Positions 48,007 to 64,000 of a DNA stretch of 64,000 bases are shown piece by piece; the first letter of the stretch is position 1; each line of letters starts with the position of its first letter. The stretch covers positions 99,105 through 163,104 of the forward strand of contig JBHLLG010000001.1 of NCBI GenBank assembly GCA_048885925.1. The letters are read 5' to 3'. The notes below the pieces were generated by a model. That model worked only from the letters and a program-made list of their open reading frames with translations, was not told the origin of the DNA and made no database searches. Source of the stretch: Candidatus Hermodarchaeota archaeon. Its GTDB lineage: Archaea > Asgardarchaeota > Lokiarchaeia > Sigyniarchaeales > SOKP01. The position numbers and the translations under genes were made by a program.

Positions 48007-49200
48007 TTAATTTTCATTCAATTTTTCCTTTAAAGCATTAGTCAATAAGGGCAAAACTTCGCAAAGATCTCCAATAATTCCATAATTTGCCACATTAAAA
48101 ATTGGAGCATCTGGATCTTTATTAATTGCGATTATTATATCGCTGCTTTTCATTCCAACTAAGTGTTGGATCGTCCCTGATATACCACATGCAATATAAA
48201 TTTTTGGGGAAACAGTATTTCCACTCTGTCCTACTTGTTGTGATTTCGGAATCCACCCTAAATCTACAGCAGCTCTGCTTGCTCCTACAGCAGCATTTAA
48301 TACGCTAGCTAAATTCTCAATTAATTTAAAATTTTCCTTACTTCCTACACCTCGTCCACCAGATACAATAGTATCTGCCTCACAAACCGGGATACCACAT
48401 TCACCACTAGTTCCCTTGATTATTTCTTTTGTCTTTACTCTTAAACTTTGAAGATCTATCGTTATAGGTACTTCAATGATTTCAGCATTATTATTTTCTT
48501 GAATTGGTGCCATTTCCATAACATTAGGTCTAACAGTCGCCATTTGAGGACGTGTTGAAGGACAAATAATATCTGCCATAATATTTCCACCGAATGCTGG
48601 TCGTGTCTGTAATAGTAACCCATCTCTTATAGATAATCCAGTACAATCAGCAGTAAGTCCTAATTGAAGAGTGGCAGCCACTCTTGGTGCTAAATCTCTT
48701 CCATTTATAGTTGCTGGATATAATACAATATTTGGGTCATATTTTGCAATTATACCTGTGATAACAGAGGAATATGTTTCAGTATAATAATCCTTAAGTG
48801 CTTCATGTTCGGCAATATAAATTTTGTTAGCACCACGTTTTGAAAATTCTGGAGCAAATATTTTAACATTATCTCCTATAAGTACCACACACACTTTTTG
48901 TTTCAATTCAGTTGCCAGTTCTTTTGCTTTACCTAATAATTCAAAAGATACATTTCTGACCCTATTATCTTTTGTTTCAGCAATAATCCACACATCTTGA
49001 AATTGTGATAAATCAACTTCCTCCCTTTTCTTCCTTTGAATCTTGATTGCTTCCACATTGCACTGATCCACACATGCACCACAAAGAGTACACTCATCTC
49101 CAATAATAGCAATTTTTTCTACAATTGTTATTGCCCCAAATGGACATGCTTTTTCACAAAGTCCACATCCAGTACATTTATCCTTATCTACATTTATCAA
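48007..49200 (-). CDS. etfA: ETF alpha subunit with N-terminal 2[4Fe-4S] ferredoxin domain (second copy)
   Basis: CTGCGLCEKAC, CTLCGACVDQC, GLTADCT, TRPAFGG, QVGQSG, CGISG. Confidence 0.92.
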   Translation of the reverse strand: MINVDKDKCTGCGLCEKACPFGAITIVEKIAIIGDECTLCGACVDQCNVEAIKIQRKKREEVDLSQFQDVWIIAETKDNRVRNVSFELLGKAKELATELKQKVCVVLIGDNVKIFAPEFSKRGANKIYIAEHEALKDYYTETYSSVITGIIAKYDPNIVLYPATINGRDLAPRVAATLQLGLTADCTGLSIRDGLLLQTRPAFGGNIMADIICPSTRPQMATVRPNVMEMAPIQENNNAEIIEVPITIDLQSLRVKTKEIIKGTSGECGIPVCEADTIVSGGRGVGSKENFKLIENLASVLNAAVGASRAAVDLGWIPKSQQVGQSGNTVSPKIYIACGISGTIQHLVGMKSSDIIIAINKDPDAPIFNVANYGIIGDLCEVLPLLTNALKEKLNEN

Positions 49201-49201
49201 T

Positions 49202-49990
49202 CTAAAGCACCTTATCCTTAGTTAATAATTCGATTAATTTTTGAACCGCAGCTTCAGATGACTCCTCTTTAATAACAACACCTTGTTGTCTTGCTGGGGG
49301 GGAATAAACTTTAATGACTTCGGTTAATGAGCCATTTAATCCATAATCTTCCTTATTACCCCCCAGTTCATCAGCATCCCATGTAGAAAATGGCTTTTTA
49401 TTAGCTTTCATTATATTCATCATGGGAGGGTTAGTTGGTTCAAACGAAGACGGGGTTATTCCTGTTATTAGCACTGGAAGTCTTACTTCTACAATTTTGT
49501 ACCCATCATCTGTTTGAACTTTTGCAGTTAATTTTTTACCTTCTAATTTTTCAACACTTTCAACATGAGTTATCTGAGGAATACCTAACTGAGCTGCAAT
49601 TTCAGGCCCTACTTGAGCAGTGTCTCCATCTATTGCTTGTAAACCACAGAATATCATATTATAATCTCCAATTTTTTTGATACTTTGAACAAGAGTATAA
49701 GACGTTGCCCAAGTATCAGCACCAGCAAAAACCTTATCACTTAGCAGGATTGCTTTATCTGCACCTAATGCTAAACACTTCAATAATGCTTTTTTAGCTT
49801 GAGTTGGACCCATAGAAATAACAATAATCTCGTCACCTTCTTTTTTGATTTTGATTGCTTCTTCAAGTGCAAATTGATCAAAGGGATTTAGTATACTAGG
49901 GACTCCCTCTCTTATTAGAGTGTTTGTTTCAGGGTCAATTTTAACTTCAGTTGTATCGGGAACTTGTTTTACACATACAATAAATCTCAT
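49202..49990 (-). CDS. etfB: ETF beta subunit (second copy)
   Basis: VCVKQVPD, FAGADTWAT, CGLQAIDGDTAQVGP. Confidence 0.92.
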   Translation of the reverse strand: MRFIVCVKQVPDTTEVKIDPETNTLIREGVPSILNPFDQFALEEAIKIKKEGDEIIVISMGPTQAKKALLKCLALGADKAILLSDKVFAGADTWATSYTLVQSIKKIGDYNMIFCGLQAIDGDTAQVGPEIAAQLGIPQITHVESVEKLEGKKLTAKVQTDDGYKIVEVRLPVLITGITPSSFEPTNPPMMNIMKANKKPFSTWDADELGGNKEDYGLNGSLTEVIKVYSPPARQQGVVIKEESSEAAVQKLIELLTKDKVL

Positions 49991-50079
49991 GGTCTCATCA
50001 ATATTTAACTAGGATTCTATATTCAATCTCAATCTTTTAAGAGTTAAATAAAGATATTAAAAATATAAAAAAAAGTTAA

Positions 50080-51264
50080 TTAATATTGTTTCTTACCAAG
50101 TAGCTCTCTCGCTACAATCATTTTCATAACTTCAGAACTGCCTTCTGCAAGTGAGAATGATCTGACTGCTCTCCATGCAGCTTGGTCAGGGCACTCTCGT
50201 GAATATCCAAACGCACCTTGCCATTGCATAACATCATTTATTGCATTACAAGCCCATTCAGAACAGAACATTTTTCCCATAGCAACAATTTTACTGGTTT
50301 CAAATCTGCTTGCTTTCCCTTGCTGTTCTAAGTCAATAGTCTTTAATGCTCTATAACCCCAATCTCTTAGCATATTTAATCTAGTATAGTGTTCAGAGAG
50401 CTTAAAATTAATTCCTTGATATTGTGATAATGATTTTCCAAATGATTTTCTTTCCTTGATATAATTCATTCCATTTTCTAAAGATTTTAAACCTGCGGAA
50501 GCGCATATAACTGTAATTAATGCCCTTGCGTATTCATATCCCTCATGTAAAATATAGAATCCTTTGTTTTCTTCACCGATTATGTAATGCTTAGGGATCT
50601 TTACATTGTCAATTGAAAAACCTCCACACGATATTCCTTCTCGTCCTAAATCAGCAATATATGTAGGAGTAATCCCTTCAGCGGTTAAAGGTAAATAGAA
50701 ACAAGTCATTCCCCTCGTTCCTTTTTCTGGGGTCTGATGAGCAATGGTAACATGACCACCACCATGAGTTACAGCTTCTCGAACTCCACTGATATACATT
50801 TTCTCACCATTTACCACAAATCCATCCCCATCTGGCTTTATTGTTGTCTTGATACCACCAACATCAGAGCCGGCATCGCTTTCAGTTGTAGCTATTCCAA
50901 GAAACCATTCTCCTAAGACTGTTTTTGGAAAAATTTCTTGCTTTGCTTCTTCTGTTCCATATTTGTTCAAAAGGAAACCCCAAGATGCTGGAACTAAGTA
51001 ATATACACACGTAGAGCCTGTACAATCTGCTCGTGCCAGTTCTTCAGCAATTACACCAGCACTTACAGCGTCTAAACCGGGTCCTCCATATTTTTCATCA
51101 GCTGTACATGTCATTAGTCCTAATTCAGCCATTCCTTTAACGACATCTCTTGGAATTTCTTTAGTTTCTTCCATTTTAAGAGCAATCGGCGCTATTTTAC
51201 TCTGAGCGAATTCTCTTACGGATTCTCTAATCATTTCTTGCTCTTCAGTAAATTTAATACTCAT
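50080..51264 (-). CDS. Acyl-CoA dehydrogenase (possibly cyclic acyl-CoA specific)
   Basis: IATTESDAGSD, VNGEKMYIS, ERKSFG, QWQGAFGY, AEGSSEVMK; GAGGT SD. Confidence 0.88.
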   Translation of the reverse strand: MSIKFTEEQEMIRESVREFAQSKIAPIALKMEETKEIPRDVVKGMAELGLMTCTADEKYGGPGLDAVSAGVIAEELARADCTGSTCVYYLVPASWGFLLNKYGTEEAKQEIFPKTVLGEWFLGIATTESDAGSDVGGIKTTIKPDGDGFVVNGEKMYISGVREAVTHGGGHVTIAHQTPEKGTRGMTCFYLPLTAEGITPTYIADLGREGISCGGFSIDNVKIPKHYIIGEENKGFYILHEGYEYARALITVICASAGLKSLENGMNYIKERKSFGKSLSQYQGINFKLSEHYTRLNMLRDWGYRALKTIDLEQQGKASRFETSKIVAMGKMFCSEWACNAINDVMQWQGAFGYSRECPDQAAWRAVRSFSLAEGSSEVMKMIVARELLGKKQY

Positions 51265-55512: not shown

Positions 55513-55626
55513 AAAATTAACTCAATAATCTCATCAGTTTTACATCTTATTACTTTTTGTGCTCTTATAAATAAATTTATTAAGAATAAAATGAAAAGTT
55601 TGATTAATAAACTAATAATTAAAATA

Positions 55627-55654
55627 AGGGCAAACTAAATAGATCCTATTTTAA
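55627..55654 (+). repeat. Conserved 28-bp upstream element, copy 1
   Basis: AGGGCAAACTAAATAGATCCTATTTTAA; 27/28 identical to 59692-59719. Confidence 0.75.
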
Positions 55655-55683
55655 GTGAATAAATTCACCTCTAGCGTTCTCAT

Positions 55684-58600
55684 ATGGCAGAATTAACTCA
55701 AGTAGAAGATTTATTGGAAAAGGCATTAACTGAAGAAAATGCTTATAACTGGAAACAAGCAGCGAAACTATATAAACAAATTGCAGAATTGTATTTAATT
55801 AGGGGAGCCAAGGAAAGAGCAGCTGAAAACTATATGAAATGTGGAATGTCGTATTTTGATGCTGTAAATGCATCAGAAAATGTTGGTGAATTAGAAGAAA
55901 ATACTAAATACTTACTCAAATCCCTGAAGGCCGGTGCTAAAATCAATAAGGAGATTGGAAATATGTCTGACGCGTTAGAATGTGATGGATTAGTATTTCT
56001 GACTCAAGCACTATATTTTATGGAGGCCAAGCAAGAAATCCTGAATTCAGCTAAACAATCTTTTGAGTTTCTTAATAAAGCCATCGAACTTTTTGATAAA
56101 GAAAAAACAAATAAAAATGATCTAGCGAGAAAATTATATAATTGTTCATTTGCTACGGTTTTCCTAGTTTATTGTAGTTTCGATAAAATAAATTTAGATG
56201 AAACCTTGCAAAAAGGTTTCGATTTCGCGTATGATGCTTGGAAAATATCAAAAGATGTTAAAGACTTGAAAATTCTCACTGATTCACTAGATTTGGAGAT
56301 CAATAATTTATGGAGTTTAGTTGCTTTCTTAAAAGATTTCCAGAAAGATGAAAGTTGGATTGAATATTTGAGAAATTTTCTTGTAAGGTGTGATGAAAGC
56401 TTAAAAATTATAGGAGAATGTAAAAATTCTCGCATACTTCGATCGATTTATTCAGCTATGGGTTTGGCTTATGTTAACCTTGCGCATTATTATATTGAGG
56501 AAGAAATAGAACAACGAAAATTATTTGATAAGGGTTTGGACTTTCTGGAACAAAGCATAGAATTTGCTCGAGAATCAAGAAATAATAATGCTTTAATTTA
56601 TCTCTTATATTGGATAAATTTCTTAGCCCTTGTAGCTGGTAAAATAAACTTTCTTCAAAAAAGAATTAGTAATGATATTGATGAGATCACCAAGATAGGA
56701 GTTATATTTGAAACTACAAATTTAGCTTCATACCCATTTGCATATTACTTACCTGCTTTTTATTACTCAAACATTGCTCAGTGGAGCATTTTTACTCCAA
56801 CCCAAAGAATTTCTTATGCTAAAAAAAGTATTGAGTATACTAAAAAAGCTTTAGGAATATCAGCAAGTACACTTGTTGATACTTGGATGTGTCAAGCGTT
56901 AGTCTGGTCATATTCTCAATTAATTAATCTAACAGCAATAAAAGAAGAGCGTAAAGACCTTATTCAAAAGATGCTTAAGTTTACGAATCAAGCTAAAAAT
57001 TTTGGAGAAAAATCTGAAGGTGGCTTAATTCGTGCCGCTGGTTATTCTTCCATATATAAGGCTTATAAAACACTAGCAGATATTGCTGAAAATAAAGAAG
57101 AAAAAATTAAAACTTTAATTATTGCCGTTAACGCGAATAAAAATTATATAAAACATGCTAGGGAATCTAGAACTGGTAATATATCAGCTAGATTGCGATT
57201 AGGACTTCTATATGAAGAATTAGGTATTTTATCATCAAATAACGATACAGTTCTCCAAGCGAGAGAGTTATTTGATAAATTAATTGATGAATGCATTGAT
57301 AGAAGATATTACTCGTATGCTGCTGCTGCCTGTGAATATTCTGCTCGGATTGAAGACAGATTAGGCAATTATCTTGTTTCAGCAGATTATTATGGAAGAG
57401 CTAAAAATGGATATTCGGATTCATTGAAAAATGCTGAATATAAGCTCCTTAAAAATAGAATTAATGAAAAAATAAATTATGTAAATGCTTGGAGTTTTAT
57501 TGAAAATGCAAAAGCATCCCATAAAAAAGAGAATCATCTTAAAGCTAAGGAAAACTATGAAAGAGCTATTGAAATTTTAAAGAATCTACCAAATTTTAAG
57601 TTTGAATCAAAATATTACTTAGCTTGGGCGGAACAGGAAGAAGCTGAAAGACTCAGCAAACTTGAGAAACACAAGGAAGCTACAGAACATTATGAAAAAA
57701 CCAAAACAGTTTTTGATGATTCTATAAAAGTCATGGAGGATGTGGCTAATAAGATTAAAGATAAATTCACATTAGAAAGGATAAAAAAACTTGAAAAAGT
57801 AGCACGATTACGAATTAAATACTGTTCAGCTAGATCAAATGTAGAAAAAGCGAGAATTCTAGGAAAACAAGGTGAATATTGTGCTGCTGCTGAATTGTTT
57901 GCTTCTGCTGCATCTGAATTTAGAGATGTTTGCAATTTATTTAAAATTGAACGAGAACGAGGAGAACTTGAGGCAGTTTATTATCTCTGTAGAGCATGGG
58001 AAAGCATGGAACTTGCTGAAAAATATTCTGACCCAGAAAGATTTGCAAAGGCAGCAACCCTATTCACTAAAGCAAGTGGACTTTTTAGTGATAGTAAATT
58101 AAAATTACTCGCATCTGGTAATTCCGCATTCTGTCAAGCATTGGAATTAGGATGTGAATTTGATGAAACTTTTGAATATAATTTAAAAGCTGAATTGTAT
58201 CCAAAAATAAGGTCAATTTTAAGAAAGGCTGCCTCCTCTTATGAAAAGGGGGGTTTTGAAAACGGAAGTAATTGGGCTTTAGCAACCGCGACTCATTTTG
58301 ATGCTACTTGGTCCTTGATTAAAGCGGATGAAGAATTAGAATTTGAAGAAAGGAAAAAACTGTTGGGAATTGGATCGGATTATTTGAAATCAGCAGCAGA
58401 ACTTTTTAGTAAAGCAGGTTATAATGATAAAGAAAGAGAGATATTAAAACGTTTAGACATGGTAGAGAAGGAAGAAAAAATTATTTTTTCGGCTTTAAAT
58501 TCAATTGAAAAACCAAAAATATCAGGAAGTACCGTTGGAATTATCGCTCCGGCATGTTCATTAGAAACTAGCCAATCCCCTAGATTAGGTGAAGTTACTC

Positions 58601-59523
58601 AATTTACTCTAGAAGAAAGAAGAGCCATTGTAGAGAGATCTGCTAAAAAAAAATATGAAATAATCTATAGAGATTTGTTTAAGGAATATCCAAGAGCTCA
58701 AAAAAGAGAATTTAAAGTTGGCATTGCCCAAATTGGCGTATCTAAATCAGGTAATATTATGGGAGAATTCTATAACATGACATCTTCCGGTCTATTGGGA
58801 CTCAGAAAGGATAAAGTTGAAAGTATCCGAAGTATTGTTAGAAATATGATTGAAAATGCGAATAAAGAAGGTATTAGCGTTTTAATTTTCCCAGAAATGT
58901 CAATTGACCTCAATTACGGAGAATTTTTAGAAGATATTTCATATTTTGCCAAATTATATGAAATGTATATAATTCCAGGCTCTTTTCACAACCAAGGAAC
59001 AAAACAAAATATTGCTATGGTTTTTGGACCAGATGGGATTCTTTGGGAACAAGAAAAACATATTCCTGCTATAATACATTTTAGAGGAAAAAGATTTAAG
59101 GAAAATATAGAAATTGAAGCCCTCCCTCGAAAAATATTTGTATGCAATACCGAATTTGGCCGAATAGCGATTGTTATTTGTCGTGATTTCCTTGATATGG
59201 ATTTGAGGGTAGAGTTAAAAAATTTTGAACCTCCTGTTGACATTATTTTGAATCCTGCCTTTACACCTGTTACTTCTGATTTTAAAGCAATACACTTCGA
59301 TGCTCGGAGATCTATCTATGCTTACTGTTTTTTTGCTAATATTGCTGAATTCGGTGAATCTTTAATATACACTCCAGAAAAGGATCGCACTGAAAGAATT
59401 CTTCAAGCAAAAGAAGAAGGTTTAATATATAAAGAAGTGGATCTATTTAAATTGCGTTCTGAACGGAAAAAATGGGAAAAAAAAGAAAATAATGAAGTCA
59501 AATTCATTCAAAGTACAAGATAG
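55684..59523 (+). CDS. SNAP/TPR-like helical-repeat protein with C-terminal carbon-nitrogen hydrolase (nitrilase) domain, copy 1
   Basis: About 950 aa of TPR-like helices, then KVGIAQI, LIFPEM (Glu), EQEKHIP (Lys), VICRDF (Cys), FFANIA. Confidence 0.85.
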   Translation: MAELTQVEDLLEKALTEENAYNWKQAAKLYKQIAELYLIRGAKERAAENYMKCGMSYFDAVNASENVGELEENTKYLLKSLKAGAKINKEIGNMSDALECDGLVFLTQALYFMEAKQEILNSAKQSFEFLNKAIELFDKEKTNKNDLARKLYNCSFATVFLVYCSFDKINLDETLQKGFDFAYDAWKISKDVKDLKILTDSLDLEINNLWSLVAFLKDFQKDESWIEYLRNFLVRCDESLKIIGECKNSRILRSIYSAMGLAYVNLAHYYIEEEIEQRKLFDKGLDFLEQSIEFARESRNNNALIYLLYWINFLALVAGKINFLQKRISNDIDEITKIGVIFETTNLASYPFAYYLPAFYYSNIAQWSIFTPTQRISYAKKSIEYTKKALGISASTLVDTWMCQALVWSYSQLINLTAIKEERKDLIQKMLKFTNQAKNFGEKSEGGLIRAAGYSSIYKAYKTLADIAENKEEKIKTLIIAVNANKNYIKHARESRTGNISARLRLGLLYEELGILSSNNDTVLQARELFDKLIDECIDRRYYSYAAAACEYSARIEDRLGNYLVSADYYGRAKNGYSDSLKNAEYKLLKNRINEKINYVNAWSFIENAKASHKKENHLKAKENYERAIEILKNLPNFKFESKYYLAWAEQEEAERLSKLEKHKEATEHYEKTKTVFDDSIKVMEDVANKIKDKFTLERIKKLEKVARLRIKYCSARSNVEKARILGKQGEYCAAAELFASAASEFRDVCNLFKIERERGELEAVYYLCRAWESMELAEKYSDPERFAKAATLFTKASGLFSDSKLKLLASGNSAFCQALELGCEFDETFEYNLKAELYPKIRSILRKAASSYEKGGFENGSNWALATATHFDATWSLIKADEELEFEERKKLLGIGSDYLKSAAELFSKAGYNDKEREILKRLDMVEKEEKIIFSALNSIEKPKISGSTVGIIAPACSLETSQSPRLGEVTQFTLEERRAIVERSAKKKYEIIYRDLFKEYPRAQKREFKVGIAQIGVSKSGNIMGEFYNMTSSGLLGLRKDKVESIRSIVRNMIENANKEGISVLIFPEMSIDLNYGEFLEDISYFAKLYEMYIIPGSFHNQGTKQNIAMVFGPDGILWEQEKHIPAIIHFRGKRFKENIEIEALPRKIFVCNTEFGRIAIVICRDFLDMDLRVELKNFEPPVDIILNPAFTPVTSDFKAIHFDARRSIYAYCFFANIAEFGESLIYTPEKDRTERILQAKEEGLIYKEVDLFKLRSERKKWEKKENNEVKFIQSTR

Positions 59524-59691
59524 TTAGAACTATCTCTAAAACTATGGAACTAACTTTGAATGAAAAATATTAAAGTAAAAGCAGAATAAAGAAATCTAAA
59601 TATCTTAAATAATTACCATCTTAATCTTGAATTATAATTAAATTTATTAAGTATAAAACGAAAGATTAATCAATATAAATTAGTATTCTAT

Positions 59692-59719
59692 AGGGCAAAT
59701 TAAATAGATCCTATTTTAA
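59692..59719 (+). repeat. Conserved 28-bp upstream element, copy 2
   Basis: AGGGCAAATTAAATAGATCCTATTTTAA; nearly the same distance to ATG as copy 1. Confidence 0.75.
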
Positions 59720-59747
59720 TTTACAAATTTAGTTTTTAATCTCTCAT

Positions 59748-62700
59748 ATGACTGAACTAACCGAAGAAGAAAATAATTTATTGGAAAAGGCATTAGCAGA
59801 AGAAAAAATTTATAATTGGTTGGAAGCAGCCAAATTATACAAACAAGTTGCTAATAGTTATTTGAAAAAAAATCTTCTAGAAAAAGTTGCTGAAATTTAT
59901 AAGAAGCTTGGATATTCATATTCACGAGCAGCTTTCACTGTAAAAACAAATGAACAATTTGTACAATATATCAAAGAAACCATAAAAGCTTATACAGATG
60001 CATTGAATATTTTTGAACAAATTGGAAATAAAGCTATGAAATTTGAATGTGAAGCGGAAATTTTTCTTTTCAGATCATATATAACAGATTCTTTTTCAAC
60101 ACAAAAGAAGGACCTCATCAACTCATATGAGCTTTTCGTTAAATCAAGCATAGAATATTCTAAGGAAGATTACCAAGAACACATTGCCAGAGTTTTGAGT
60201 CACGGTGCCTATGCTTGTATAGCAAGTGGTTTTTCTATAATTGATCTTAAAGAATTTGATGATCATTATCAAAAATGTAAAGATATTGCCCTTAAGGCTC
60301 AAGAAATTTCGAAGAAAACTGAAAATGTTCAATCTCTTGCCTATTCGTTATGGGCAGAGTATTATTTGACGTTAATTCAAGTTTATATAAAACCATTTAG
60401 ATGGAATGAGGATTGGAGAGAAGTTTTCAAAAAATATCTATTAAAATGCGATGAAAGTTTAACTTTAATTGAAAAATATGATGATTTAAAAGCTTTAGCT
60501 ATGATTTGTATTACTTATGGCAATGTAAGTGGGTTTTTTTCGATTCATTTCATTGAGGACGAAAATGAGCAAAGAGAGTATATGGATAATGCATTGAAAC
60601 TACTAGAAAAATCTTCAAATCTTGCTAGAAAATTAAACGATATTGCTTTAATAAATGAGTCTATATATTGGTTGGTTATGTGGTCTATGCTTGGAGGTAG
60701 AGTTAAGTATCTCCAAAATAAACTTGCTACTAACCTTGAACGGTTTATAGAGATAGGAAATATATTTAAAGACACGTATACTATATGGAATTTCCAAGAA
60801 AATGTTTTATTAGGAGCTTATTATGCTAATATTGCCCAAAGGAGTTTCTTCACATCAGATCAGAGGAAATCATATGCCGAAAAAGCAATTGAATATGCAA
60901 AAATAAATTTGACGAATATGCCAGATTCACCTTTTATTTCAGATTCTCATTTAGCATTAACATGGGCATATTCACAATTAGTTATTCTCGGTAAAAAAAA
61001 AGAATTGCAGAAGATTAATGCCCAAAAAATGCTTCAATATGCAGAAAAACTTGGAAAAATTGCTGAGAAATATGAAGGCGGGTGGGTTCGAGCATATGGT
61101 TATTCATCTCTCTATAGAGCCTATAAAACTCTCGCGGATATTGCTGAGAGTGAAGAAAACAAAATTGAAATGTTATCACTTGCCATAGAAGCTTCCGAAA
61201 AGTATATGGAGCATTCAAATGAATCTCGAACAGGTATCATTACAGCTCAAGTACGCTTAGGACTTCTTTATGAAGACTTTGGCATTTTAACTAAAAATAA
61301 TGATATATTTATAAAAGCAAAAGATTTATTCCTCCAAGTAGCGAAAGAAAGCCAAAAAAGAGGGTATCAATCTTATACAGCCGCAAGTTACGAATACTTA
61401 GCAAGAATAGAAGATCGCTTAGGTAATCATACAGCTTCAGCAAATTATTATGAGATGGCACAAAATGCATATGGTGAATCATTAAAAAAAGTTGATTATA
61501 AACCATTAATAAAGAGAATTAATGAAAAATTGAATTATGCTAAAGCTTGGAACTTAATTGAAATTGCTAAAGTTAATCATAAAAGTGAAAATCATCAAAA
61601 AGCTAAGGAGAGCTATAATGATGCTTGTGAAATCCTAAAAAGTCTGCCAAGTTTCAATTATGAAGCAAATTATTATTCTGCTTGGTCATCTCAGGAAATT
61701 GCGGAACAACTAAGCAAACAAGAAAAACACGAAGATGCTATTAAGCAATATAATATAACTATAGATATGTTTGAAAATGCAATTGCAATCCTAGAAAAAC
61801 GGTTAAATAAATCTAAAGAAAAGATAGAACTTGAAAGAATCGACAAAATTATAAAAGTAGCCAAATTAAGGACATCATATTGTTCCGCTAGAATAGATGT
61901 TGAAAAGGCAAGAATCGTAGGAAAACAAGGTGAACATGTAACAGCTGCAGAATTATTTGCTTCAGCAGCATCCCAGTTTAGATATGTTTGCAACCTATTT
62001 AAAACTGAAAAAGAACGAGTAGAATTAGAGGCTGTATATTATTTATGTAGAGCTTGGGAAAGCATGGAACTTGCTGAAAAATATGAAGATCATGATAGGT
62101 TTTCAGAATCTGCTAATTTATTTATAAGAGCAAGTAATTTATTCACAGATAGTAAATTGAAATTATTAGCATCAGGTAATTCTTCTTTTTGCCAAGCTTT
62201 AGAACTTGGATGCGAATTTGATGAGACTTATGATTCTGAAGTAAAAGCTCAATTGTATTCTAAAATTAAAGCAATGTTAAGGACAGCAGCGTCTTCTTAT
62301 GAGAAAGGAGGTTTTAAGAATGGTGGTGATTGGGCTTTGGCTACATCTACTTATTTCGATGCAGTATGGCATTTAATAAGGGCGGATGATGAGTTAGAGA
62401 TTAGCAACAAAAAAAATCTTTTAGATATCGGAGCTAACTATTTAAGATCAGCAGCGGAGCTTTTTAGTAAAGCGGGATATAAAGATAAGGAAAAGGAAAT
62501 TTTAGCCCGTTTGGAAAGATTGAAACAAGAAGAAAAAATATTAGTTTCAGCTCTAAATACAATTAAAAAACCTGCGATATCTAGCAGTACAACGGGTATA
62601 ATTGCTCCTGCCTGTTCATTAGAAACTAGTCAATCGCCCCGGTTGGGTGAAGTATATCAGTTCACCGAAGAAGAAAGAAGAGTAATAGGAGAAAGAGTAG

Positions 62701-63584
62701 CTAAAAAGAAATATCAAATTATTTATAGAGACTTATTTAAAGAATACCCTAGAGCTCAAAAAAGAGAATTTAGAGTTGGCATAGCTCAAATTGGTATATC
62801 TAAAAGTGGAGATATCTTAAATGAGTTTTACGAGATGAAAACTTCAGGTTTATTAAGCCTCCGGGAAGATAAGCTTGGAATTCTAAGACCTAAAATTCAA
62901 AACATGATTGAAAATGCACATAAAGAGGGAGTTAATGTTTTACTTTTCCCAGAAATGATAATTGACCTTAATTACGGTGAGTTATTGGAAGATATTTCTG
63001 ATCTTGCCAAATTATATGAGATGTATATAATTCCAGGCTCGTTTCATGATCAAGAAACAAAAAGAAATATTACTAGAGTTCTTGGACCAGATGGTATTCT
63101 TTGGGAACAAGAAAAACATATTCCAGCAATAATAAGATATGGGAAAACAGAATTCAAGGAAGGTATAGATGTAGGAGATATTCCTCGAAATATTATTGTT
63201 TGCAATACAGAATTTGGGAGAATTGCAATTTCTATTTGTCGTGATTTTCTTGACATGGATTTAAGGGTAGAATTGAAAAATTTTGAACCTCCTGTTGATA
63301 TTATTTTAAATCCTGCCTTTACGCCTGTGACTGCTGATTTTAAAGCAATACACTTTGATGCTCGGAGATCTATTTATGCATACTCCTTTTTTGCTAATGT
63401 AGCTGATTTCGGCGATTCTTTAATATATACTCCTGAAAAAGATCGCACTGAAAGAATTATTCCAGCAAAAGAAGAAGGATTGATATATAAAGATATTGAT
63501 CTCTTCAAATTGCGTTCAGAACGTAAAAAATGGGAAAAAGAACAGAAAAAAGAAAAACAATTTATCCAAAGTACACGATCATAA
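59748..63584 (+). CDS. SNAP/TPR-like helical-repeat protein with C-terminal nitrilase domain, copy 2
   Basis: Colinear paralog of 55684-59523; LLFPEM, EQEKHIP, SICRDF triad intact. Confidence 0.85.
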   Translation: MTELTEEENNLLEKALAEEKIYNWLEAAKLYKQVANSYLKKNLLEKVAEIYKKLGYSYSRAAFTVKTNEQFVQYIKETIKAYTDALNIFEQIGNKAMKFECEAEIFLFRSYITDSFSTQKKDLINSYELFVKSSIEYSKEDYQEHIARVLSHGAYACIASGFSIIDLKEFDDHYQKCKDIALKAQEISKKTENVQSLAYSLWAEYYLTLIQVYIKPFRWNEDWREVFKKYLLKCDESLTLIEKYDDLKALAMICITYGNVSGFFSIHFIEDENEQREYMDNALKLLEKSSNLARKLNDIALINESIYWLVMWSMLGGRVKYLQNKLATNLERFIEIGNIFKDTYTIWNFQENVLLGAYYANIAQRSFFTSDQRKSYAEKAIEYAKINLTNMPDSPFISDSHLALTWAYSQLVILGKKKELQKINAQKMLQYAEKLGKIAEKYEGGWVRAYGYSSLYRAYKTLADIAESEENKIEMLSLAIEASEKYMEHSNESRTGIITAQVRLGLLYEDFGILTKNNDIFIKAKDLFLQVAKESQKRGYQSYTAASYEYLARIEDRLGNHTASANYYEMAQNAYGESLKKVDYKPLIKRINEKLNYAKAWNLIEIAKVNHKSENHQKAKESYNDACEILKSLPSFNYEANYYSAWSSQEIAEQLSKQEKHEDAIKQYNITIDMFENAIAILEKRLNKSKEKIELERIDKIIKVAKLRTSYCSARIDVEKARIVGKQGEHVTAAELFASAASQFRYVCNLFKTEKERVELEAVYYLCRAWESMELAEKYEDHDRFSESANLFIRASNLFTDSKLKLLASGNSSFCQALELGCEFDETYDSEVKAQLYSKIKAMLRTAASSYEKGGFKNGGDWALATSTYFDAVWHLIRADDELEISNKKNLLDIGANYLRSAAELFSKAGYKDKEKEILARLERLKQEEKILVSALNTIKKPAISSSTTGIIAPACSLETSQSPRLGEVYQFTEEERRVIGERVAKKKYQIIYRDLFKEYPRAQKREFRVGIAQIGISKSGDILNEFYEMKTSGLLSLREDKLGILRPKIQNMIENAHKEGVNVLLFPEMIIDLNYGELLEDISDLAKLYEMYIIPGSFHDQETKRNITRVLGPDGILWEQEKHIPAIIRYGKTEFKEGIDVGDIPRNIIVCNTEFGRIAISICRDFLDMDLRVELKNFEPPVDIILNPAFTPVTADFKAIHFDARRSIYAYSFFANVADFGDSLIYTPEKDRTERIIPAKEEGLIYKDIDLFKLRSERKKWEKEQKKEKQFIQSTRS

Positions 63585-63723
63585 TTTTTACTTATTCTAA
63601 ATCTGTGATTATTTTATATAAAATATTTTAAACTTACACATCTAATATTAATTATTCTTAAAGATAAAAAAATGAAACCCAGAAAGCCAATATTTCTAAT
63701 ATATGATTAAAATATAATTGAGG

Positions 63724-64000
63724 ATGGTAAGAATCACTCAAGTTGAATTGTTAAATCGAGCAGAAGCAGAAGAAAAGAAGTATAATTTAAAAGAAGCAAT
63801 CAGATTATACAAACAGGTCTTAGAGAATTTTATAGATAAAGATGATTTGATAAAGGTTGCACAGATTAATGAAAAGATCGGAAATATTTACGTTTTAGCT
63901 ACTTTAACAGCTGATACTGAGAAAGAACTTACAGAAATGATAGATGATGCAGTAGAAGCATATGATAAAGCAATAAAGATATATACCGAAATGAATAATA
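63724..64000 (+). CDS. Third paralog of the TPR-repeat family (truncated by window end)
   Basis: MVRITQVELLNRAEAEEKKYNLKEAIRLYKQV...EKIGNIY aligns with LLEKALAEEKIYNWLEAAKLYKQV...KKLGYSY; frame open to the window edge. Confidence 0.75.
   Translation, partial: MVRITQVELLNRAEAEEKKYNLKEAIRLYKQVLENFIDKDDLIKVAQINEKIGNIYVLATLTADTEKELTEMIDDAVEAYDKAIKIYTEMNN

Follow-up and report, generated by a model that had tools for sequence, protein, structure and literature searches.

We analysed a 64,000-nucleotide stretch of the genome of a Candidatus Hermodarchaeota archaeon (G000:C1:99105-163104, where G000 is this genome; hereafter the window), at the end of which lie the first genes of a tandem array encoding giant proteins with a tetratricopeptide repeat (TPR)-like core. 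The proteins share one architecture, consisting of a long helical solenoid, a short linker and an exchangeable C-terminal module, which in the window is a nitrilase-superfamily domain with an intact Glu-Lys-Cys triad. The family diverges in a graded manner along its length and is patchily distributed in variable copy number; the array genes have no NTPase, and no conserved partner gene accompanies them. Our leading, though tentative, reading is that these genes represent a modular single-polypeptide sensor-effector family. The likeliest single setting for it, in our view, would be conflict or immunity, and non-immune signalling tied to Asgard small GTPases comes a close second. The anatomy comprises an interchangeable input (the solenoid front half or a GTPase module), a constant chassis (the rear half and the linker) and an interchangeable output.

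Open reading frame (ORF) calling in the window gave two complete genes, copy 1 (A1, P0001; 1279 residues) and copy 2 (A2, P0002; 1278 residues), with the same architecture and 57% overall identity (737/1291, BLASTP). They are followed by the opening of copy 3 (A3), which continues past the window end (1283 residues, G000:C1:162822-166673). The original prediction, which was made from the window alone, had described these two paralogs and the start of a third, head to tail, and the complete array contains five such genes (G000:C1:154788-173916; 1279, 1278, 1283, 1278 and 1070 residues). The fifth keeps the core up to the linker and then carries a Cys-rich zinc finger in place of the nitrilase domain. 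A search of the whole assembly located the family at eight places; the three dispersed paralogs lie on contigs C7 (a sixth full-length paralog), C41 (a short form described below) and C71 (338 residues, with a GTPase-like start and a piece of the core). Public-run contigs from four studies cover the array stretch, and no RNA run was listed among those that contain it. Because overlapping pieces span the copy 1/2 and copy 2/3 junctions, the head-to-tail arrangement is supported by more than a single assembly. A TATA-like box and a 39-nucleotide element upstream of copy 1 recur before copy 2 (91% and 85% identical; direct repeats D4 and D3, respectively), which suggests that each of these two genes has its own, similar promoter.

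The predicted TPR-like core was borne out by structure modelling. Residues 1-985 of copy 1 were modelled as an all-helical solenoid of about 38 helices, with a predicted local distance difference test score (pLDDT) of 91.2 and a predicted template modelling score of 0.84, using a 58-sequence alignment. Together with the fold matches, this model describes a TPR-like core of roughly 950 residues, in which helical hairpins stack into a superhelix. Foldseek placed Ctr9 first (E 1.3e-10), followed by Ski3, IFT-A, separase, TTC7 and LGN. The Pfam TPR_12 profile stayed under its cut-off of 30.1 bits in every copy (23.4, 19.6, 29.8 and 27.4 bits). Almost all near-invariant columns in alignments of 146 and 58 sequences fell within residues 478-916, and no architecture lacked the rear half, which is kept even in the short GTPase form and in the relatives from Bathyarchaeia. 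Conservation extended into the linker, where P944, P956 and E961 were near-invariant even in proteins with other C-terminal modules. The pLDDT of residues 941-980 was 73-86 in the model that includes the core but 29-50 in the one that omits it, which gives no more than a hint that the linker may pack on the solenoid.

The C-terminal domain of copy 1 carries the motifs FPEM (E1071), EKHIP (K1125) and ICRDF (C1166) and ends in FIQSTR, and the named motifs are found in copy 2 as well. All three triad residues were invariant in 122/122 aligned sequences, as were the whole CRDFLDMDLRV stretch and the terminal IQST (122/122); the last residues, F-I-Q-S-T-R, were invariant or nearly so. Against Pfam PF00795 (cut-off 23.2 bits), the domain of copy 1 scored 28.3 bits (E 1.4e-6), copy 2 exactly the cut-off (23.2 bits), copies 3 and 4 26.1 and 24.6 bits, the C7 paralog 23.1 bits, just under the cut-off, and the C41 short form 35.2 bits. 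In a six-frame search for the family, all six fused domains exceeded the cut-off, at 26-38 bits. The best-scoring profile for the copy 1 domain was the PADLOC model RTasNitrilase (41.6 bits, E 1.9e-11), above the Pfam score; NCBIfam gave no match for this domain. A model of residues 941-1279 showed a nitrilase-type alpha-beta-beta-alpha sandwich (pLDDT 74.5, with the core above 90). Searched against the PDB with Foldseek, it returned 158 matches at E <= 0.001, and all those listed were nitrilase-superfamily enzymes. Nit2 (2w1v, E 3.3e-11) came top, with the PH0642 amidase (E 6.2e-11) next to it and template modelling (TM) scores of 0.49-0.66; N-carbamoylputrescine amidohydrolase, vanin and beta-ureidopropionase followed (down to E 1e-8). 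C1166 and K1125 aligned to the Cys and Lys of mouse Nit2 that we take to be its catalytic residues. At the sequence level, likeness to enzymes in the PDB was remote (phmmer E 0.0033, 15-19% identity). Thus, the original claim of a C-N hydrolase end with an intact triad held in both complete copies. We also modelled a complex of two copies of the nitrilase domain; a control scored nearly as high, and this model was not used as evidence.

The genome encodes two standalone CN-hydrolases that match PF00795 at 136 and 95.8 bits, and BLAST between the fused domains and these enzymes gave only E values above 1. The fused nitrilase domains therefore appear distinct from the genome's housekeeping amidases. 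By its sequence, the output of the window copies is probably a divergent amidohydrolase, with the triad intact and activity predicted.

Divergence between the paralogs is strongly graded. Residues ~100-350 of copies 1 and 2 had been called barely alignable, with 20-30% identity, and we measured 27% (66/248). The same prediction put about ten differences in the last ~100 residues; this number is right for residues 1156-1255 (10/100 positions), but the last 100 residues contain 15. Mean pairwise identity among the five full-length nitrilase-bearing paralogs of the genome was 48% over residues 1-47 and fell to 21-37% in the following stretch (residues 48-440); it was about 53-64% for most of residues 440-950 and reached 81-90% in residues 1156-1255. 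The gradient had the same shape in 121 homologs from other assemblies, rising from 33-50% at the front to 62-90% at the back, so the anticipated rise in conservation towards the C-terminus was confirmed in both sets; the conserved linker is present in both complete copies (IIAPACSLETSQSPRLGEV in copy 1). Where they could be tested, neither uniform divergence, nor single-copy conserved synteny, nor clustering of the nitrilase domain with housekeeping amidases was found, any of which would have spoken against the original prediction.

To describe the selection acting on the genes, we estimated the ratio of nonsynonymous to synonymous substitution rates (dN/dS) pairwise by the Nei-Gojobori method in 100-codon windows. 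Between copy 1 and the closest ortholog with DNA (G150:C20), the ratio was 0.23-0.49 per window over codons 1-500 and 0.07-0.19 behind them. Between copies 1 and 2 it was 0.26-0.40 at the front and fell to 0.16-0.20. Every window gave a value below 1. Positive selection is therefore not supported and diversifying selection, as originally proposed for this array, is not demonstrated; for the paralog pair the test is weak, because dS is near saturation. The front half is, on these comparisons, less constrained than the rear, without demonstrated positive selection. Recent gene conversion was considered as a source of the near-identical 3' ends and rejected: long stretches of identical DNA are absent between copies 1 and 2, whose best direct repeats reach 69-91% identity. 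As the conserved C-terminal stretch is also 82-90% identical across 121 homologs of other assemblies, purifying selection is the simpler explanation. In codons 1101-1200, dS dips to 0.66, compared with 1.0-2.0 elsewhere.

We placed 27 copies from 13 genomes in a quick IQ-TREE maximum-likelihood tree, excluding one copy from genome G102. A1 paired with copies from G150 and G065, A2 with G121, A4 with G049, A5 with G150 and the C7 copy with G008, each with support of 97-100 in the Shimodaira-Hasegawa-like approximate likelihood ratio test. A3 had no close partner among the copies sampled, and the two TIR-ended copies fell in different clades. Because most paralogs pair with orthologs in other genomes, the duplications are old and their lineages have been kept.

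The original prediction had called for a survey of the C-terminal domains that follow the same core, and this survey showed that the module is swappable. The family comprises 623 homologs at 90% clustering, and the core 467 clusters at 50% identity. These 467 cluster representatives were the hits of a full HMMER scan with residues 1-980. Among the best 150, 124 extend as far as the linker, and in 120 a tail of at least 40 residues follows; the tails were classed by BLAST to reference tails. A beta-sandwich alone was the most frequent class (58/120), and further tails combined it with a winged helix-turn-helix (wHTH)-like part (21/120), KaiC (11/120) or, in one protein, an AAA domain (1/120). 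The nitrilase domain ended 8/120 proteins and one more behind a beta-sandwich. TIR was assigned directly in 6/120, and six further tails that BLAST left unassigned cluster with it. The zinc finger and a small alpha/beta domain occurred in 3/120 each and a metallophosphoesterase in 2/120. Pfam confirmed several of these classes above its cut-offs (TIR_2 E 3.4e-11, Metallophos 1.6e-12, KaiC 1.3e-10, AAA 1.2e-8); TIR_2 had no match in G000 itself. The nearest feature-space clusters to the zinc finger were archaeal RING fingers (scores 0.85-0.89), and Pfam gave a Rtf2 RING-finger match at E 0.054. The finger of gene 5 may thus be RING-like, which we treat as a lead only.

The input end is exchangeable as well. 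A short form (the C41 gene; P0170, 874 residues) has an alpha/beta domain and an Arf/Roc-like GTPase where the long proteins have their variable front half, and retains the conserved rear half and the nitrilase domain behind them. Its first 300 residues match a common standalone Asgard protein of about 308 residues (score 0.98, TM 0.83), and its alpha/beta domain is the same domain that we saw as a C-terminal module (E 7e-7). Upstream of the short gene, about 96 extra in-frame codons (L007:562-849, upstream of position 18485 on C41) are homologous to the N-termini of full-length relatives (P0170). As ATG, GTG and TTG are all missing from this stretch, either the start codon of the gene is unusual or its start is truncated.

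These links bear on a second explanation, in which the family is a non-immune signalling or regulatory scaffold within an Asgard network of small GTPases and KaiC-type proteins, with paralogs docking different clients and the enzyme tuning a metabolite or second messenger. The short form joins the rear half and the nitrilase domain to a GTPase unit that is otherwise a common standalone Asgard protein, the same alpha/beta domain recurs at the other end of the chassis, and distant relatives end in KaiC, AAA or wHTH-like parts. The best fold matches of the solenoid are eukaryotic assembly scaffolds, the neighbouring genes are of housekeeping type, and the paralogs are old and under purifying selection, all of which also suits such a scaffold. 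We consider it a serious contender that is nonetheless somewhat unlikely.

For the 120 best-matching homologs of copy 1, every organism name given was Asgard (Loki/Promethearchaeota, Thor-, Hod-, Odin- and Hermodarchaeota). Their public annotation goes no further than carbon-nitrogen hydrolase family protein, predicted amidohydrolase or TPR repeat protein. Searching 151 genomes of the phylum with the conserved rear half (E <= 1e-10), we detected the family in 22 of them, at one to eight places each; this corresponds to 18/73 high-quality genomes, 7/52 genera and 13/25 genomes of the archaeon's own family. Outside Asgard archaea, the beta-sandwich branch (1314 hits) includes one member on a Bathyarchaeia contig (L025:6001-9309, 85% identical to P0178). 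In the Bathyarchaeia branch, a set picked by likeness of the rear part, the gradient was mild (42-57% rising to 63-82%). The Asgard branch is far less uniform than this beta-sandwich branch. The literature searched contained no description of the family, including the main text of two surveys of Asgard defence (PMC11291487, PMC13700489), whose supplementary tables may list it. On that literature, the suggestion of an undescribed Asgard system stands as regards description, but the core is not confined to Asgard archaea, since beta-sandwich-ended relatives occur in Bathyarchaeia.

One array locus could be compared among genomes by its common flanks (methyltransferase, UbiA, radical SAM, MoxR and VWA genes). 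At this locus, the studied genome has four nitrilase-ended copies and one zinc-finger copy, G121 has three nitrilase copies, G065 has one TIR and one nitrilase copy, and G144 has a single metallophosphoesterase copy. G150 and G132 share the ends of the array and are interrupted by contig ends. In G008, of the same genus and 99% complete, neither flanking gene was found with these queries. A locus of G141, outside the synteny comparison, contains one TIR and two nitrilase copies. Copy number and effector type therefore vary at one syntenic place within a family that is patchy in its phylum. These data go against the signalling scaffold: the distribution is patchy even within one family (13/25) and one genus, copy number ranges from 1 to 5 at the syntenic locus, and nitrilase, TIR and metallophosphoesterase interchange in the same position. 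Such behaviour is less typical of core regulators than of accessory or conflict genes. Indeed, it is these outputs, together with the patchiness and the turnover of copies and effectors at one locus, that give the family the look of conflict genes.

Proximity to defence genes, a check for which the original prediction had called, was not seen at the loci surveyed. On one side, the array is flanked by genes for electron transfer flavoprotein (ETF), acyl-CoA dehydrogenase, ACT, methyltransferases and TauE; on the other lie an AbrB/MazE-like gene, UbiA and radical SAM, then MoxR and VWA. Nine other loci had zero neighbour families in common with the array locus, from which we conclude that there is no conserved partner gene. 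We surveyed 86 neighbours, up to four ORFs per side, at 12 loci in 11 other genomes. The 25 listed of the 36 PADLOC families that matched these neighbours were E1-E2/ThiF models (two to three members each) and mad2 (two members), and no known defence genes stood beside the arrays. PADLOC searches of the family proteins themselves returned only the nitrilase-domain match and no complete described defence system.

A third explanation is that the family modifies proteins: the solenoid would pick protein substrates and the end would modify them, as an amidase or a RING-like ligase, with a role in a ubiquitin-like pathway or in proteostasis. Peptide binding is common among TPR solenoids, and some members of the nitrilase superfamily are protein N-terminal amidases. 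Gene 5 and its relatives end in a Cys-rich finger nearest archaeal RING clusters (again, a lead only), and in G121 and G065 the syntenic arrays have ThiF/E1-like and JAB genes nearby. By contrast, the TIR and metallophosphoesterase ends do not suit this role, the nearest solved nitrilase folds are small-molecule amidases (Nit2, PH0642, N-carbamoylputrescine amidohydrolase and vanin), and the locus of the window lacks E1 and JAB genes, which leaves protein modification improbable.

Even less probable, in our view, is that the protein is an ordinary metabolic amidohydrolase with a helical appendage for stability or complex formation, the divergence of its front half reflecting relaxed constraint and the array neutral duplication. 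Public annotation as a carbon-nitrogen hydrolase or predicted amidohydrolase, the metabolic neighbours and dN/dS below 1 throughout agree with this idea. However, a length of about 1275 residues, around which homolog lengths cluster, is kept in more than 100 homologs; front halves are kept among orthologs (dN/dS 0.23-0.49, not 1); unrelated modules replace the enzyme on the same core; and the genome already has two separate canonical CN-hydrolases.

Several observations weigh against an immune sensor-effector family. No described defence system adjoins the genes at the array locus or at 12 other loci in PADLOC searches, Pfam tallies of the neighbours are mostly metabolic, and viral contigs scanned with two nitrilase motifs yielded no family member. 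No 100-codon window had dN/dS above 1, and old paralogs would fit long-kept specialised copies as well as an arms race. The connections to GTPase, alpha/beta-domain and KaiC modules speak for signalling. Finally, the Bathyarchaeia branch is well conserved and carries non-toxic-looking modules (beta-sandwich, wHTH-like and KaiC), so the chassis is not intrinsically an immune device. In favour of the sensor-effector reading stand the anatomy and the precedent of DRT1, in which a nitrilase behind helical repeats serves as an assembly-dependent defence effector with a C-terminal lid (PMC13275509); by analogy, the window proteins could work likewise. Balancing these points, we rank the sensor-effector family first, signalling second, protein modification third and a metabolic enzyme last.

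Under the sensor-effector reading, the front half (residues ~50-440) would be the partner- or ligand-binding part, the rear half (residues ~440-950) and the linker the constant chassis, and the C-terminal module the output. A specific protein or peptide would bind the variable solenoid surface, and the C-terminal enzyme would thereby be released or assembled; to our knowledge, nitrilases and TIR domains both work only as oligomers. The enzyme could then hydrolyse an amide-bearing cellular metabolite, leading to growth arrest or a signal. The array would thus couple a single output to several recognition specificities, and its remaining copy would have a different output. A bolder version, which we regard as doubtful, is that these are germline-encoded arrays of NTPase-free single-chain receptors whose front halves read different invader proteins and whose TIR, nitrilase or phosphoesterase ends kill or arrest the cell. 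The nitrilase would in that case be the second independent amidohydrolase immune effector after DRT1.

If the sensor-effector reading is true, a large family joins a repeat sensor to TIR, nitrilase or phosphoesterase without an NTPase switch, which would add a further design to those known for innate immune receptors, bear on the immune modules present in the archaeal lineage nearest eukaryotes and provide a second setting for finding the substrate of defence-type nitrilases. If signalling is the true role, Asgard Arf-like GTPases would be linked to enzymatic outputs via a TPR chassis, which matters for cell regulation. Under either reading, the graded paralog array is a natural experiment that places the same output on different front halves and is suited to domain swaps.

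Features of the tandem array within the window (positions counted from the first nucleotide of the window)
Feature	Position	Strand	Basis
TATA-like box upstream of copy 1	55565-55596	+	Direct repeats, alignment
Second element (39 nt) upstream of copy 1	55627-55665	+	Direct repeats, alignment
Copy 1, complete gene: TPR-like solenoid, linker and nitrilase-superfamily domain	55684-59523	+	ORF call
Copy 1 residues 48-440, variable solenoid front half	55825-57003	+	Paralog identity, dN/dS
Copy 1 residues 441-930, conserved solenoid rear half	57004-58473	+	Paralog identity, near-invariant columns, dN/dS
Copy 1 linker IIAPACSLETSQSPRLGEV, residues 953-971	58540-58596	+	
Copy 1 CN_hydrolase domain, about residues 1005-1279	58696-59520	+	Pfam PF00795, Foldseek
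Copy 1 triad codon E1071	58894-58896	+	
Copy 1 triad codon K1125	59056-59058	+	
Copy 1 triad codon C1166	59179-59181	+	
Copy 1 C-terminal FIQSTR motif	starts 59503	+	
Repeat of the TATA-like box, before copy 2	59632-59663	+	Repeat of copy 1 element
Repeat of the 39-nt element, before copy 2	59692-59730	+	Repeat of copy 1 element
Copy 2, complete gene	59748-63584	+	ORF call
Copy 2 triad codon E1069	62952-62954	+	
Copy 2 triad codon K1123	63114-63116	+	
Copy 2 triad codon C1164	63237-63239	+	
Copy 3, start of gene (copies 4, 1278 residues, and 5, 1070 residues with zinc-finger end, lie beyond the window)	63718-64000	+	

The whole 64-kb window contains zero tRNA genes and zero Rfam families at gathering score, and its GC content is 26-35%. 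At window positions 48007-51264 on the minus strand, genes for a ferredoxin-fused ETF alpha subunit, an ETF beta subunit and an acyl-CoA dehydrogenase stand in a row. A few genes downstream of the array and outside the window, G000:C1:177603-183735 (L009:3704-9836) encodes a MoxR-type AAA_5 ATPase, an 873-residue VWA protein and a 781-residue protein without a Pfam match; the ATPase has a sub-threshold match (E 1.8e-4) to the model of the MoxR-vWA-beta-propeller ternary system, and relatives of the MoxR and VWA genes also flank the syntenic arrays of G049 and G065. Further downstream (L009:9891-14220) are four clustered alpha/beta-hydrolase paralogs of 278-280 residues and one of 253 residues on the opposite strand. 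ThiF/E1-like genes, an ORF of 93 residues and JAB-domain genes adjoin the arrays of G121 and G065 (L020:2306-5240 and L021:12687-15609); PADLOC E1-E2 models matched there, and these genes are absent at the locus of the window.

One of the closest known systems is DRT1. Its defence effector is a nitrilase located C-terminally to helical repeats, which depends on oligomeric assembly and has conserved C-terminal residues as a lid; within the class, nitrilase alternates with phosphohydrolase (PMC13275509). The window proteins resemble DRT1 and the class 3 UG-Abi proteins in having a C-terminal nitrilase behind alpha-helical repeats in a protein of roughly 1200-1280 residues, in that a metallophosphoesterase is among the alternative ends, and in a conserved extreme C-terminus, which is important for the nitrilase there and reads FIQSTR here. 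In addition, the RT-associated (reverse transcriptase-associated) nitrilase model of PADLOC was the best-scoring one for the window domain (E 1.9e-11), a likeness at the level of profile scores. Unlike DRT1, the family is archaeal; Pfam, NCBIfam and PADLOC scans of all paralogs found no reverse transcriptase, and a TPR solenoid of roughly 950 residues stands where DRT1 has its RT. No DRT1 chain was among the PDB sequence or fold search matches.

The comparison with Avs and other STAND proteins drawn in the original prediction was apt in part. As in those systems, a TPR repeat part, which would be the sensor, and interchangeable effectors that include TIR sit on one chain, and several paralogs with differing sensor sequences occur per genome. 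However, Pfam, NCBIfam and PADLOC found no STAND NTPase (NACHT, NB-ARC or AAA_16-type), either in the five genes of the array or in the C7 paralog, a P-loop domain occurring only in the rare short form and one distant relative. The effector is C-terminal here, and it is the N-terminal half of a single unbroken solenoid that varies. Because there is no STAND NTPase, the analogy is one of logic only.

The core aligned with eukaryotic TPR scaffolds (Ctr9, Ski3, the TPR subunits of IFT-A, TTC7 and LGN) over 900-1000 columns at Foldseek E values of 1e-10 to 1e-5, although TM scores of only 0.2-0.4 and identities of 10-14% mean that this likeness is generic and gives no evidence of homology or shared function. 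The N-terminus, which had been said to recall alpha-SNAP, shares with it a helical-hairpin character, and PF14938 is recorded for some homologs. Gene 5 matched the profile at 18.2 bits (E 0.0018), below the threshold of 25 bits; copies 1 and 2 had no SNAP match at E up to 0.1, no SNAP was among the listed fold matches, and the family protein is four times longer than alpha-SNAP. With only sub-threshold, scattered Pfam and PDB matches, we rejected a specific relationship of the N-terminus to alpha-SNAP or MIT; the resemblance is generic to TPR-like hairpins. For the catalytic domain, Nit2 (omega-amidase) and the PH0642 amidase are the nearest solved structures and have the same Glu-Lys-Cys triad, although they are standalone enzymes of about 270 residues and the sequence likeness is marginal. 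Taken together, these comparisons indicate that the logic of a repeat sensor with swappable effectors is known already, and that what is new here is a chassis without an NTPase, a continuous solenoid with a graded front half and a nitrilase as the main output.

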